Assembly (NCBI GenBank): GCA_050942925.1 | Contig: JBMNOF010000003.1 | Location: 25,314 to 89,313, forward strand | Source: Candidatus Spyradocola sp. | Lineage (GTDB): Bacteria; Bacillota; Clostridia; Christensenellales; UBA1750 | DNA length: 64,000 bases | Direction: 5' to 3' | Made by a program: the position numbers and the translations under genes | Part shown: positions 19,348 to 24,249 of the stretch, in pieces | Numbering within the stretch: the first letter of the stretch is position 1 | Layout of the letters: every line of letters starts with the position of its first letter | The notes under the pieces: model-generated | The model's input: only the letters and a program-made list of their open reading frames with translations | What the model was told of the DNA's origin: nothing | Database searches by the model: none

Positions 19348-21144
19348 TTACTCGCCGCCGCCGGCTTCTGCCGTGTGCTGCGTGATGCGGAAGATCACGA
19401 ACTCGGCGGGCTTGACCGGCGCAATGCCGATGTTGCAAATCAGCCGGCCGTTGTCGATGTCGTCCTGCGTCATGGTCGTGCGGCCGATCTCAACGAAGAA
19501 CGCCTCGGAAGGAGAATTGCCCGCCAGCGCGCCGGAGCGCCACATGGAGGCCAGGAACATCTCCACCGTGCGGCGGACGCGGGACCACAGCGCCTCGCTG
19601 TTGGGCTCAAAGACGACCCAGTTGGTGTTCGCACGGATCGTCTCCTCCGTGTAGATGAAGAGACGGCGCACGTTGACGTACTTCCACAGCGCGTTGGAGG
19701 AAACCGTGCGCGCACCCCAGACGCGGATGCCGCGGCCGGTGAAGGCGCGGATCAGGTTCACGCCCTGGGGATTGAGCAGATCCTGCTCTCTCTCGTTGTA
19801 GGGGGTGGACAGGCCCGTGCAGCCGCGAACGACTTCGTTGGCCGGGGCCTTGTGCACGCCGCGCTCGGTGTCGCAGCGGGCGTAAATGCCCATCACCGCG
19901 CCAGAGGGCGGCATGTAGGCGCTGCGCTTGGTCAGCGCGTCGAAGCACTCCAGCCACGGATGGTACACCGCCGCGTAGCTCGAATCAAAGATGTCGCGCT
20001 GCTCGAGCAGTTCGTCCACCTTCGTGGCGGAAAGGGGCATATCCAGCACCGCAAAGCGGGACTTGAGGTTCTCGCAGTGCGCAACCAGCGAAAGCTGCAC
20101 GTCCGCGTCCGTCACGCCCGGCACCGCCATGATGGAGACCACGGCGTTCTCCAGGAACGCCTGGATGCCCGTGCGCTTGCCGGGGCCGTTGTCCACGCCG
20201 ATGTACTCCGCCGCGGTCACGCCCGCGATGTTGCCATCGGAACCGTTGTCCAGGGAGACGAGGAGCATGCCGCCCTTGCCGCCGACGGCCGCAAAGGGAG
20301 ACACAACGCCGGCCGCCGCCGCAACGGGCGCGGGAGCGGGCTCTTCCTTGCCGTCCTTGCCCTTGACGGGCGCGGGAGCGGCGGGCTTGGCAGCGGGCGC
20401 AGCCGCGCCAACCGCAACCTTGACCAGGTCGCTCTTCTGCATGCGGGCAACGATATAGTTAGAAGCCTCTGCATTGAAGGAAACCGCGTCGTACTCTTCC
20501 GAAGCATCCTCGTACTTGACGGTGACCTTGATCTCCGCCGTGCGGATGTACTTCATCGGGCGCAGGTTCTTGTCCACAACGTCCGCCGTCACCGGGCTCT
20601 CAAAGACGATGATATTGTCCTGAGAGGACTTGATCACCGCGTAGGAAGAGGCCTTGCCGTCGAACAGCTCGACGACATCGCCCGCGTTGAAGCCATCGCA
20701 GGACTTCACCTTCAGGGCGTTGTCGGCGACCTTCTCGTAAACCTGGGTGCGGGCCTTGGAGGCGGGCTCCAGAATCACGCGGATGGCGTTGCCCCACATG
20801 CCGGGATTGGCAGCGGTAAAGGTCAGGCGGCCGGCCGAAGCGGTCGCGGGCTTGGCGTCTTCGGGCGCGACGCGCATGATGAAGGCGCGGGCACCACCGT
20901 TGAGGAAGAACTGCTCCACTGCGTAGGGCAGGAAGCGCTTATCCCCGTACTTGGCTTCCGAAAGGTAGCCGCCGTAGGTGCGCTGGTAGTCCGCAAAGCT
21001 GGTCACAAGCTGGGGCTTGCCGATGACGGGTCCCCGCATCGCCATGCCGATGAAGCCTGCCGTCGAGGTGCTGACTGCCTCCATGGGCACCGCACCGGAG
21101 TCAAATTCTTCGACGTAAACACCGGGGGAAAGATATTCTGGCAT
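19348..21144 (-). CDS. contractile tail sheath protein
   Basis: N-terminus MPEYLSPGVYVEEFDSGAVPMEAVSTSTAGFIGMA; C-terminal GVNLIRAFTGRGIRVWGARTVSSNALWKYVNVRRLF...FEPN is typical of the sheath family. 598 aa, with an internal Ala/Pro-rich insertion. Confidence 0.9.
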   Translation of the reverse strand: MPEYLSPGVYVEEFDSGAVPMEAVSTSTAGFIGMAMRGPVIGKPQLVTSFADYQRTYGGYLSEAKYGDKRFLPYAVEQFFLNGGARAFIMRVAPEDAKPATASAGRLTFTAANPGMWGNAIRVILEPASKARTQVYEKVADNALKVKSCDGFNAGDVVELFDGKASSYAVIKSSQDNIIVFESPVTADVVDKNLRPMKYIRTAEIKVTVKYEDASEEYDAVSFNAEASNYIVARMQKSDLVKVAVGAAAPAAKPAAPAPVKGKDGKEEPAPAPVAAAAGVVSPFAAVGGKGGMLLVSLDNGSDGNIAGVTAAEYIGVDNGPGKRTGIQAFLENAVVSIMAVPGVTDADVQLSLVAHCENLKSRFAVLDMPLSATKVDELLEQRDIFDSSYAAVYHPWLECFDALTKRSAYMPPSGAVMGIYARCDTERGVHKAPANEVVRGCTGLSTPYNEREQDLLNPQGVNLIRAFTGRGIRVWGARTVSSNALWKYVNVRRLFIYTEETIRANTNWVVFEPNSEALWSRVRRTVEMFLASMWRSGALAGNSPSEAFFVEIGRTTMTQDDIDNGRLICNIGIAPVKPAEFVIFRITQHTAEAGGGE

Positions 21145-21278
21145 GTTCGTTTCTGACCCGCTGCTTGCGCGTGGATCAGAGTCCTCCTCTCGCCTTGTTT
21201 TTTTGCCGCACGCCGTATTCGGGCGCGCAGCTCTATCTCTTGGGACCCTTCCGCTGTGCGGCCGAATCCCTCAAGCAT

Positions 21279-21662
21279 CTACAGTTCCAGTGCGCCAAGG
21301 CACTGCTCGATCAGCGCTCTTTGCCGGGCGAGCGCATGCTCCAGCGTCCACCGGGCGCCAAGCTCGTCCTCGTAGTAAAGCGTCTGCTTCAGGTACGCGC
21401 GCCCCGCCTCGTCCGCAACGAGACAACCGTCTCCAAGTGTGCGGTTCAAGCGGTTGCAGCGCAAGGCCATGTCCGTGGGTTCCGCCTGCGCCGGCAGGCG
21501 CGCATAGAGCGCAAACCGTCCCGCGCGGCATCGAAGCACGACTGGCACCTTGCCCCGCCGGCTTTGCGCGCAAAGGCAGAGCTCTTCCCCATGCCGTTCA
21601 AAGGGGATCTCCATCGCCTGCAGCGCGTCCTGCGCCAGCGGCAGCGGGTCTTCCCTCTCCAT
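21279..21662 (-). CDS. YbjN / type-III-secretion-chaperone-like (TY-Chap-like) small protein
   Basis: Start trimmed to ATG 21662 (GGCGAGGTG RBS). The pattern LAQDALQAMEIPFERHGEELCLCA...VPVVLRCRAGRFALYARLP...ALRCNRLNRTLGDGCLVADEAGRAYLKQTLYYED resembles YbjN/CesT-like chaperone folds. The call rests on recollection only. Confidence 0.4.
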   Translation of the reverse strand: MEREDPLPLAQDALQAMEIPFERHGEELCLCAQSRRGKVPVVLRCRAGRFALYARLPAQAEPTDMALRCNRLNRTLGDGCLVADEAGRAYLKQTLYYEDELGARWTLEHALARQRALIEQCLGALEL

Positions 21663-21993
21663 GGGTATGCACCTCGCCTTCCGAACTGTCGTCGGGGTCA
21701 TCGTCGAATTCGGGGATGCACTCGGGGACGACGGCTTCCGGATTTCCCTCCACCGGGACCCAGTCCGCTGCCGGTTCCTCCGGCAAGCGCTCGGGCCGGA
21801 CCGAATCCGCGCCCACGCTGCGCTCGAACAGGTGCAGCGCAGCGGCGTTGCCCGCGCACAGTCCCACAGCTTGTATCGCCGCTGCGGACAATCGCGCGCC
21901 CCCCCCCTTGCAGGGCGCGCAGGGACTGTCCGACCGCGCCGCGCTGCCGCGGTGCTTTCCTGCTGCGGACGCTTTCCTCCTTATTCTCCTCAA
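21598..21993 (-). CDS. possible small acidic protein; start unresolved, contains a G9 homopolymer
   Basis: This is the only coding-like frame (GC3-rich) across 21700-21900: ..FERSVGADSVRPERLPEEPAADWVPVEGNPEAVVPECIPEFDDDPDDSSEGEV. There is no good RBS at the TTG 21993 start, and it overlaps the next gene by 64 nt. Confidence 0.3.
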   Translation of the reverse strand: MRRIRRKASAAGKHRGSAARSDSPCAPCKGGGARLSAAAIQAVGLCAGNAAALHLFERSVGADSVRPERLPEEPAADWVPVEGNPEAVVPECIPEFDDDPDDSSEGEVHTHGEGRPAAAGAGRAAGDGDPL

Positions 21994-22937
21994 TTCGCTG
22001 TTTTTCCTGCTTTTGTTCCAACATTTTCTGTGATTTCCGTCTCCGGATCGGGAGATTGTGAAATGTCCGTGAACCCTTCATCGGAATCCTGGAAAAATTC
22101 TGCTTCCATTCGTGCAAAAAGGGATTCTGCTGCACGCGCATTTGCCAGCATGGACTCCAATTTGGTTAAGAAGTCCCGTTTTCTTTGCTCTTTCTTTTGC
22201 AAGAGCGCGCGTGCGCGCACAAGAGCGCGGTCCACGATGCGGATCTCTTCCGAGGATGCGTTCCACATTCTGCGCCGCTTTTCCGAAAGCGCCTCCACAA
22301 GCCCCCGATCCTCCTCCGTAAAGAGGAAGGGGAAGGTTTCGCGCAGCGTGTTCACGCCCTGCCCCTCCAGGGCCAGCGCGGACTTCTGCACCGCGGATAG
22401 CGCGCGGGTTGCGGCGGCCGTCGCGCGCAGCGTCACCGCCACGGCGGCATGTGCATCCCCGCCAAACCGAACGCGAACGCTGCTCTGGGGAACGGGTCTC
22501 TCGTCCGCCAGGCTGTCGATGCGCCTGCGCGACTCCGTGCGGGGCAAGCCCCGTCCTGCGGCACGCTCCATGCAGGCATACAGCATCATCTCGCCCTGGC
22601 CGCGGAGAACGGCGCCCGCCATGCGTCCGCTTTGGAACGCATAGGACACAAACCGGCGAAGGCCCCCCTGCTCGTCGTTTTCAACGAGTTCCCGCATGTC
22701 GGTTTTCTGCGGTTCCTTAGGCGCCTTTCCGGCCAAGATCTGTGCGCTCTGCGTGCCGACAAGGTCAAAAACGCAGGAAAATCCGTCGCTCAAGGCATAG
22801 ACAGGGTCCCGATTGGGCGCATAGTCCACGCCCGCATTCTTGCGCAGCAGCGCAAGCAATCGTTCCTCTGCACGAATATCCGGTCTTTCCGGCCCAGCCT
22901 TGTGCGCTTCCTGTCGCTTTGTGCGATAGATGCTCAT
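21990..22937 (-). CDS. hypothetical protein, first gene of the tail-like operon
   Basis: Start trimmed to ATG 22937 (GGAGGAG RBS), about 75 nt downstream of the predicted promoter. 315 aa, no TM segment and no motif I recognise. Acidic C-terminus FFQDSDEGFTDISQSPDPETE. Confidence 0.65.
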   Translation of the reverse strand: MSIYRTKRQEAHKAGPERPDIRAEERLLALLRKNAGVDYAPNRDPVYALSDGFSCVFDLVGTQSAQILAGKAPKEPQKTDMRELVENDEQGGLRRFVSYAFQSGRMAGAVLRGQGEMMLYACMERAAGRGLPRTESRRRIDSLADERPVPQSSVRVRFGGDAHAAVAVTLRATAAATRALSAVQKSALALEGQGVNTLRETFPFLFTEEDRGLVEALSEKRRRMWNASSEEIRIVDRALVRARALLQKKEQRKRDFLTKLESMLANARAAESLFARMEAEFFQDSDEGFTDISQSPDPETEITENVGTKAGKTAN

Positions 22938-23018
22938 TTTCTCCTCCTGCTGTTCTGTTCCCACCGGAGGCACGAGCAAAGCGTTCTTTTTTCTATATTA
23001 CGGCTTCAGCCCTTTTTC

Positions 23019-23048
23019 ATTATAGCACTTGGATTTTTTCGTTGTCAA
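23019..23048 (-). promoter_or_regulatory. sigma-70-type promoter of the tail-like operon (TTGACA-18-TGcTATAAT)
   Basis: The minus strand reads ggaTTGACAacgaaaaaatccaagTGcTATAATgaaaaag. It is embedded in an obviously AT-rich ~200-bp island (22985-23190) in otherwise GC-rich DNA. Confidence 0.7.
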
Positions 23049-23247
23049 TCCCTTCCTTTTTGATGAAAATCTTCACATTTATCCTGTTTTTACTGCAATT
23101 ACTTTCGAAAAATAATATTTTACCATTTTATATAGGCTGCATTTATTTTATTCCCTAAACGAATACGTAAATTTCCCTTTTTCTGTCTATGCAGACAAAC
23201 GTCCCGGGCAAAAGCCACCCGTGGACGTTTGTCAAGAGATCTCGGCA

Positions 23248-24249
23248 TCAGGGCTTTGCGCGCGAATAGCGCTGGGCAATCCGCAGCACGTCCTTGCGCA
23301 CCTGCTCGCGCAGCTCTTCGGGGGCGAGGACCTCGCAGACGCTGGCGTATTGCAGGGCGAAAAAGCGCATGTTTTCCAAGCTGGAGCGCAGATGCACCTC
23401 CATCATCTCCCCATCCTCGCAGGGGATCATCTGCGCGTAGTGGCCGAAGGCGTCGTAGACCTGTCCGGCAGCGGTCACAGGCATGCGCAACGTCACGCGC
23501 ACGGGCTCGCCGCTGTACATATAGCGGTGCTCGGCCGCATAGCGCGCCATGTCCACGCCCCCGCGAAACTCCGGAAGGTCATAGGGCGTCATGGCGCCAA
23601 GGTCGGTGACGACCAAGTCGCGCATGTGGTCCACGCGGAAGTGGCGGAGTTCCTTGGAGCCCTCGTAGCAGGCGAGCAGGTAGTACTGCCCTTGCGCACA
23701 GAGCAGCGCCAACGGGTGCGCCTGCCGGACGCGGCCGTCTGGAACCAGCTCCCCGTCCAGCCCGATGTGGCAATAGAGGAAGCGCACCTGCAAGTGCTCG
23801 TGCACCGCGCGGCTGAGACCGTCCATGCAGTCAAAGAAATCGCGGTGGTGCATCCGGTGCCACTTGTCCACGGCGTGCACGTCCTGCACGCCGCTGGAAA
23901 AGCCCGCGCGGCCCAGATCCGTCAGCTTGCCGATGAGCTCGCGCGCCTCCTGCGAGGGAATGTACCGGCTGAGCAGCACGCTGTCGATGAGCACGCGCAG
24001 CTCCATGTCGGAGAAGAGCGGCTCCAGGTACGCGCCCTTTCCGCCCGGGCCGGTGCGAATGGGATAGCGCATCTCCCGCAGGAGGGAGAGATTCCGGGAG
24101 ATGGCATTTCGCCCCGCCTCCATGCCGAAGTCCTTCTCGATGTACTCCTCCATCTGCGCAATCGTCAGGGGGCGCTCACTGGACGAATGGGCCCGGAGCA
24201 CCTTGAGGATGCACAGCGCAAGACCTTTCTTTCCACTCAATGTCGTCAT
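23248..24249 (-). CDS. WYL-domain transcriptional regulator (HTH-WYL-WCX architecture)
   Basis: N-terminal wHTH-like KKGLALCILKVLRAHSSSERPLTIAQMEEYIEKDFG. WYL core PLALLCAQGQYYLLACYEGSKELRHFRVDHMRDLVV. Confidence 0.8.
   Translation of the reverse strand: MTTLSGKKGLALCILKVLRAHSSSERPLTIAQMEEYIEKDFGMEAGRNAISRNLSLLREMRYPIRTGPGGKGAYLEPLFSDMELRVLIDSVLLSRYIPSQEARELIGKLTDLGRAGFSSGVQDVHAVDKWHRMHHRDFFDCMDGLSRAVHEHLQVRFLYCHIGLDGELVPDGRVRQAHPLALLCAQGQYYLLACYEGSKELRHFRVDHMRDLVVTDLGAMTPYDLPEFRGGVDMARYAAEHRYMYSGEPVRVTLRMPVTAAGQVYDAFGHYAQMIPCEDGEMMEVHLRSSLENMRFFALQYASVCEVLAPEELREQVRKDVLRIAQRYSRAKP

Follow-up and report, generated by a model that had tools for sequence, protein, structure and literature searches.

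A YbjN/type III secretion chaperone-fold protein and an undescribed conserved family at the head of a contractile injection system operon in Candidatus Spyradocola

In type III secretion systems (T3SS), class I chaperones keep hold of an extended stretch of the substrate and bring it to the export ATPase (PMC13466201). Cargo loading in extracellular contractile injection systems (eCIS), as described for PVC and AlgoCIS, requires an AAA+ ATPase together with a disordered N-terminal sequence (10.64898/2026.05.27.728243). A literature search found no dedicated chaperone described for PVC or AlgoCIS loading, and no paper linking the YbjN family to contractile injection systems (CIS). The YbjN proteins described so far act on their own in stress or DNA repair, and none is linked to an injection machine (PMC5398634, PMC3575483). 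Here we describe three open reading frames, ORF1 to ORF3, at the head of a CIS operon in Candidatus Spyradocola sp. (Christensenellales), carried on a stretch of 64,000 nucleotides of contig JBMNOF010000003.1 that is called the window throughout. An earlier note on this DNA had proposed that the first and third of these genes encode a payload and its chaperone. The best reading of the data is that the trio forms a conserved accessory module of Clostridia-type CIS, and not the usual toxin/chaperone pair. That this module is one of chaperone or adaptor type, serving assembly or loading alongside the AAA+ ATPase and with ORF2, ORF1 or both as partners of ORF3, is a proposal to which we give about even credence.

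None of the three proteins has a match in Pfam, PHROGs or NCBIfam, which agrees with the earlier observation that they are not look-alikes of structural proteins. The likeness of the ORF3 product to YbjN and to the CesT/SycE chaperones, which had been read from its sequence pattern (every quoted segment of which was found), is borne out by modelling. The start that gives a protein of 127 amino acids (aa) is correct, as homologues start at the equivalent point. An AlphaFold2 model built from a 10-sequence alignment is confident (predicted local distance difference test score, pLDDT, 90.8; predicted TM-score 0.83), and runs helix, four strands, helix, two strands, long helix (H-E-E-E-E-H-E-E-H). 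When this model was compared with the PDB by Foldseek, the top 15 matches all belonged either to the YbjN family or to the class I chaperones of T3SS (E values from 1e-5 to 7e-3). The best matches are to the YbjN family (PF10722; E. coli YbjN, D. radiodurans DR_1245, E. amylovora AmyR), with DR_1245 (4H5B) at E 1e-5 and a TM-score of 0.64, and E. coli YbjN (6VU7) at 0.65. The class I chaperones matched are SpcU, SicP, SycH, SycN/YscB, SchA, InvB, STM2138, SigE and CesT, with TM-scores of 0.5-0.6 against SicP, SpcU, SchA and SycN.

Links between ORF3 and YbjN at the level of sequence appear weak but consistent. A profile of the ORF3 family found no match in the PDB. Homologues from three lineages, however, give sub-threshold matches to PF10722 that extend over much the greater part of the domain (14-19 bits, where the cut-off is 22; E 0.0016-0.047), and an ORF3 profile, searched against the 26,255 ORFs read in six frames from the genome that carries it, retrieves one other protein (E 4e-4), which is the bona fide YbjN of that genome (27.5 bits to PF10722). 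From the chaperone fold and these weak sequence signals together, it follows that ORF3 is a divergent branch of the YbjN/TypeIII_Chap superfamily.

Comparison with described members of the superfamily is instructive in both directions. The T3SS class I chaperones (CesT, SicP, SycE/SycH, SpcU, InvB; clan CL0097, TypeIII_Chap) are proteins of ~120-150 aa with an alpha-beta-beta-beta-alpha-beta-beta-alpha fold, and as homodimers they bind an extended N-terminal segment of a cognate substrate. ORF3 resembles them in size (about 130 aa) and in its helix/strand/helix fold, its gene adjoins and in one lineage is fused to that of its likely partner, and the operon to which it belongs is that of an injection machine with a dedicated ATPase. 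Unlike them, it has no detectable sequence similarity to the class, and it belongs to a Christensenellales CIS operon (sheath, tube, baseplate, cap, AAA+) and not to a T3SS operon, the genome not having been searched for a flagellar T3SS. Class I chaperones usually have an isoelectric point of 4-5, whereas ORF3, with 19 acidic (D+E) against 17 basic (K+R) residues, is mildly acidic at 5.73. Unlike the known YbjN proteins, ORF3 falls below every Pfam threshold, and its branch is fixed at the head of CIS operons. Most likely, ORF3 acts as a chaperone or adaptor of small size, probably as a dimer, and would hold an extended segment of a partner protein.

The question is then which protein ORF3 might hold, and the larger of its two neighbours is a member of a family that has not been described before and that is linked to this clade of CIS. 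The 315-aa ORF1 with its acidic tail is present as the earlier note had reported, and the tail contains ...FFQDSDEGFTDISQSPDPETE... A first search recovered five homologues only; when 1.84 billion representatives were searched with a profile, 192 clusters emerged at E<=1e-3, 118 of them at E<=1e-30. Family members, mostly of 320-430 aa, can be aligned from end to end. They have an N-terminus of a basic, KKRK type, and share the motifs RDPVYxxxExF..FD, FxxxAFxRGxLxAAVLxGxGKMMLxSCLKR, FNR..SAVGLVVD, TLxxxYPFL and KKxQM..F; the acidic tail alone varies, often with PP(E/D)D. A consistent Pfam match was lacking among 43 diverse members, as were toxin, enzyme and DUF4157 domains, and the family profile found no match in the PDB.

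The association of ORF1 with CIS loci, suggested earlier as a check in related genomes, is strict. Across 61 related genomes, which are not independent samples and in which six genera are involved, the ORF1 family profile matches exactly the 7 that carry this type of sheath (7/7 against 0/54). No further match to a narrower ORF1 profile was found in 400 evenly sampled Clostridia genomes, and no relative of ORF1 was found in viral contigs. Wherever the contig extends far enough, the ORF1-family gene lies within the CIS locus, and three gene orders can be distinguished. The first, ORF1 - ORF2 - ORF3 - sheath, is that of this species and of lineages at 72, 55, 44 and 34 % identity. The second is found in an AT-rich lineage at 19-20 % identity, and consists of an ORF1-like gene, a gene for a YbjN-like protein of 143-145 aa, the AAA+ ATPase gene and the sheath gene. 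The third, AAA+ ATPase followed by the ORF1-like gene, occurs in genomes G008, G014 and G015. The ORF1-like gene lies beside the AAA+ ATPase gene in two gene orders. In G014, the Afp15-type AAA+ gene and the ORF1-like gene form a stand-alone two-gene module (L084, G014:C41, 7876-11130), and the sheath gene is on another contig.

These observations bear directly on the proposal that ORF1 is an injected effector, kept partly unfolded on an ORF3 dimer and loaded into the lumen of the tube. The chaperone fold of ORF3 is what such a proposal would predict. The ends of ORF1 are modelled with low confidence and are probably disordered, with residues 1-20 basic and below a pLDDT of 50, as in the leaders of eCIS cargo, and the order ORF1 - chaperone - AAA+ of the AT-rich lineage resembles effector - chaperone - ATPase. 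ORF1 and ORF3 also evolve much faster than the sheath, at 44-55 % aa identity while the sheath retains 92-95 %; their ratios of nonsynonymous to synonymous substitution, 0.08-0.37 against relatives (sheath, 0.04-0.10), mean that both are real genes under purifying selection. Against an effector role stands the conservation of ORF1 over its full length in about 190 clusters, with no variable C-terminal module except the acidic tail. The protein shows no similarity to the GNxAV-type cargo motif, and it is encoded at the 5' head of the operon, whereas candidate cargo genes (an 803-aa protein, a MORN-repeat protein and a HAMP-domain protein) lie in the usual 3' region.

The comparison with eCIS cargo is similarly divided. 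As in the loading of Pdp1/Pnf with Pvc15 in PVC, and of Cgo1/Cgo2 with Alg15 in AlgoCIS, the operon has an Afp15-type AAA+ ATPase and the termini of ORF1 are predicted to be disordered. Known cargo is nevertheless encoded at the 3' end and has an effector domain that varies, in many cases together with DUF4157, whereas ORF1 is encoded at the 5' end and is conserved throughout; PF13699 (DUF4157, eCIS_core) was not found in the genome. Since its family has a member in every related CIS locus examined, shows conservation from end to end, contains no toxin domain and is often encoded beside the loader ATPase, ORF1 behaves like an accessory core part and not like exchangeable cargo, and a role as a classic payload is unlikely. 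Of the interpretation offered in the earlier note, therefore, the chaperone-like fold and the link to CIS stand, and the casting of the 315-aa protein as payload is not supported; the alternative that it also raised, of assembly or regulatory factors specific to the lineage, fits the data better.

The smaller neighbour, ORF2, makes the better candidate for a partner of ORF3. The short acidic ORF noticed earlier proves to be part of a conserved gene that is frameshifted in the window, where its N-terminal part runs from an ATG at 22024 and its C-terminal part ends at 21598. In relatives ORF2 encodes 125-163 aa, with a conserved motif '..xGN(A/S/Q)A(A/M/L)L..' followed by 'VPPERLP'. The frameshift lies at a run of nine G residues. 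In 9 of 11 assemblies of the same species the site reads GGGGGCGG and ORF2 is intact at 141 aa; the G9 allele is thus in the minority, the window sharing it with a single further assembly (L064, SRR31066337), and the run could be either a slippage-prone tract or a fixed knock-out. A profile of the ORF2 family found no match in the PDB.

In one lineage, represented by two independent assemblies, ORF2 and ORF3 form a single reading frame. Such a fusion is the best evidence that the two proteins may act together, and as the sole direct evidence for any partner of ORF3 it points to ORF2 and not to ORF1, contrary to the pairing first proposed. ORF2 would then be the closest partner of ORF3, since its gene lies directly upstream, overlaps that of ORF3 and is fused to it in this lineage.

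DUF4157 (eCIS_core) proteins often carry a motif 'LQRxxGNxAV' near the N-terminus. A motif of the type L-Q-x-x-x-G-N-[QR]-[AGY]-V-x-x-L lies upstream of DUF4157 in 4 of 12 such proteins from sampled Firmicutes genomes, and the short motif of ORF2 resembles it. In an hhalign comparison of the ORF2 family with the four tagged proteins the motifs were aligned with a P value of 0.0034 but a probability of 9.5 %, and a genome-wide search with a hidden Markov model made from the four did not recover the ORF2 of the window. The resemblance to a cargo tag is accordingly put forward as a lead only.

Taken by itself, the ORF2-ORF3 fusion would also suit a narrower arrangement, in which ORF3 chaperones solely the product of a variable gene directly upstream (ORF2 here, a 466-aa protein in G015) and ORF1 is an unrelated structural or assembly part. 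In the CIS locus of G015 (L027, G015:C20, 5689-7648), two genes lie between the ORF1-like gene and the sheath gene. The first encodes the 466-aa protein, which has two Gly-rich hydrophobic segments and the look of a pore-former, and the second a 199-aa protein that is YbjN-like by eye. The latter was considered as a YbjN-like homologue and rejected, since its hhalign similarity to ORF3 is not significant. Also against the arrangement, ORF1 itself is what the AT-rich lineage encodes upstream of its YbjN-like gene, and the similarity of the ORF2 motif to cargo tags is a lead at most. We regard an ORF3 dedicated to its upstream neighbour as rather improbable, and a payload role for ORF1, though itself doubtful, as the likelier of the two.

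In the accessory-module reading that we prefer, ORF3 would bind ORF1, ORF2 or both, and the complex would be passed to the ATPase, by analogy with the docking of T3SS chaperone-substrate complexes on the export ATPase and with loading through AAA+ proteins in PVC and AlgoCIS. ORF1 would be a clade-wide, non-enzymatic helical protein with disordered ends that works with the Afp15-type AAA+ ATPase, and its role in particle assembly or cargo loading might be that of a substrate that is always loaded or that of a cofactor of the ATPase.

A regulatory use of the same three proteins can also be imagined. The trio, with a chaperone-fold protein, a small protein carrying a cargo-like motif and a helical protein of about 300 aa, fits in size and type the ExsC-ExsD-ExsE and SycH-YscM/LcrQ circuits, to which it is similar by analogy only, and complexes of SycH with YscM2 and of SycN/YscB with YopN occur among the ORF3 fold matches. 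In a partner switch of this kind ORF3 would alternate between a loadable ORF2 and the larger helical ORF1, so that expression or lysis would be under feedback from the entry of ORF2 into particles. Regulators upstream of the operon differ by lineage (WYL, TetR or REC-like, see below), as might be expected if regulation were in play. Several observations speak against a switch: ORF1 has no DNA-binding or anti-activator domain, the trio is co-transcribed with the structural genes, and ORF2 is missing from the AT-rich lineage and from G008 and G014 and is broken in the strain of the window. Neither ExsD nor ExsE has a sequence or fold match in the trio, although the absence of ExsD from the fold matches of ORF1 must be read with the poor ORF1 model in mind. 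A switch is, in our view, improbable. More speculative still, and a long shot, is an ExsC/ExsD/ExsE-like checkpoint in a Gram-positive phage-tail-like machine, in which the AAA+ ATPase would thread ORF2 into the tube and the freed ORF3 would capture ORF1, coupling filling to late expression or lysis.

The proposal that the trio is a chaperone or adaptor module is itself opposed by a number of observations. YbjN proteins also act outside secretion, for example in the stress response and in DNA repair (PMC5398634, PMC3575483, PMC13466201), and the ORF3 of the window, which lacks any Pfam match of its own, does not reach the PF10722 gathering score of 22 bits. The monomer model of ORF1 is poor (pLDDT 54.7, from 12 sequences), being confident at a helical hairpin at about residues 200-280 only, and its fold-search matches were discarded as generic helical or coiled-coil hits with E >= 0.16. 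The AAA+/ORF1-like pair of G014 is accompanied by no detectable YbjN-like gene, and thus a chaperone is not obligatory for the ORF1 family. Finally, ORF2 is apparently broken in the strain of the window, and hence may be dispensable.

The wider locus is that of a complete injection machine (coordinates of the features are collected in Table 1). Promoter-type sites number 4 in the region, against 0.5 expected from shuffled sequences, and 3' of the operon promoter the minus strand carries ORF1, ORF2, ORF3 and the sheath gene in that order. After the sheath gene come three gp19-type tube genes, a small gene resembling those of tail-assembly chaperones, and a DUF6760 gene. Next, in the tape-measure position, is a collagen-repeat protein, and with it come a CIS_tube protein, a spike and a gp25-like protein; the baseplate set is completed by two Baseplate_J proteins and one P2_I-like protein. 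The protein in the tape-measure position (12490-17088) has 1532 aa and contains seven blocks of collagen triple-helix repeats (Pfam Collagen, E 1e-59).

Table 1. Positions of the features discussed, numbered from the first letter of the window
Feature	Position	Strand	Description
Sigma-70-type promoter of the CIS operon	23019..23048	-	TTGACA, 18-nt spacer, TG-extended TATAAT; 12/12 hexamer matches
ORF1	21990..22937	-	315 aa, isoelectric point 9.05, ribosome-binding site GGAGG; basic N-terminus, mostly helical, acidic disordered tail
ORF2	21598..22024	-	Small acidic protein, frameshifted in the window; conserved in relatives; overlaps end of ORF1 and start of ORF3
G9 homopolymer (C9 on + strand)	21899..21907	-	+1 frameshift in ORF2
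ORF3	21279..21662	-	127 aa, isoelectric point 5.7; YbjN / type III secretion class I chaperone fold
Sheath-gene leader	21152..21187	-	GGAGGA (21182..21187), then 8-bp hairpin (21152..21180); sheath AUG at 21144
Sheath gene	19348..21144	-	First recognisable structural gene; Phage_sheath_1 + Phage_sheath_1C

Past the start of the window the operon extends through genes for HAMP and MORN-repeat proteins, a Pvc16_N cap, an 803-aa protein and the Afp15-type AAA+ ATPase. In this 3' part (L042, G000:C134, 9378-17319), the HAMP-domain protein has 704 aa and the MORN-repeat protein 681 aa; there is also a 293-aa protein with a signal-peptide-like N-terminus, and the 803-aa unknown protein lies between cap and ATPase. 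The HAMP, MORN-repeat, 293-aa and 803-aa proteins are the more usual candidates for cargo or accessory genes. Because the usual core parts, cap and ATPase included, are found elsewhere in the locus, ORF1 to ORF3 are extras. A role for ORF1 or ORF3 as cap or tail terminator (Afp16, Pvc16_N, DUF4255) was considered and rejected, as neither matches PF14065 and the real Pvc16_N cap, the only such gene of the genome (G000:C134:19676-20188), lies in the same operon about 5 kb beyond the start of the window.

Upstream of the operon is a gene for a WYL/WCX regulator. In distant relatives known from metagenome contigs (L036, L038, L039), the regulator slot holds a stand-alone protein of 121-135 aa with a weak match to response-regulator receiver (REC) domains (E 0.009), and no WYL gene is found there; the relative at 72 % identity has an additional, divergent TetR gene upstream. 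The regulator, being WYL, REC-like or TetR depending on the lineage, thus changes between lineages.

The leader of the sheath gene has an unusual layout. About 40 nt separate its sole strong Shine-Dalgarno sequence (GGAGGA) from the start codon downstream, and a hairpin (CUCUGAUC/GGUCAGA..) stands between the two. The leader is nearly invariant and the stem of the hairpin is invariant in four lineages, with variation confined to the loop; the predicted minimum free energy is -19.5 kcal/mol (z -3.64). Folding of the hairpin would bring the Shine-Dalgarno sequence near the sheath AUG. An Rfam search of positions 20900-23400, the sheath leader included, returned no match.

How CIS choose and load their cargo is poorly understood, and what has been implicated so far is a disordered N-terminal sequence and an AAA+ ATPase. 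In gut Clostridia, a protein of the type III chaperone fold that is a constant feature at the start of CIS operons would be a new player in this process, and an unnamed, clade-wide partner family whose gene is often found beside that of the ATPase would likewise be new. It is thus the combination that is novel, a helper with the fold of a secretion chaperone together with a conserved partner family that has no name yet, both in a Gram-positive CIS, the fold class itself being known. For the engineering of particles for delivery, an adaptor or chaperone of this kind could matter for the loading of non-native cargo. The YbjN family is large and poorly understood (PMC13466201), and it would gain a specific function, open to experiment, in a secretion-like machine of Gram-positive bacteria.

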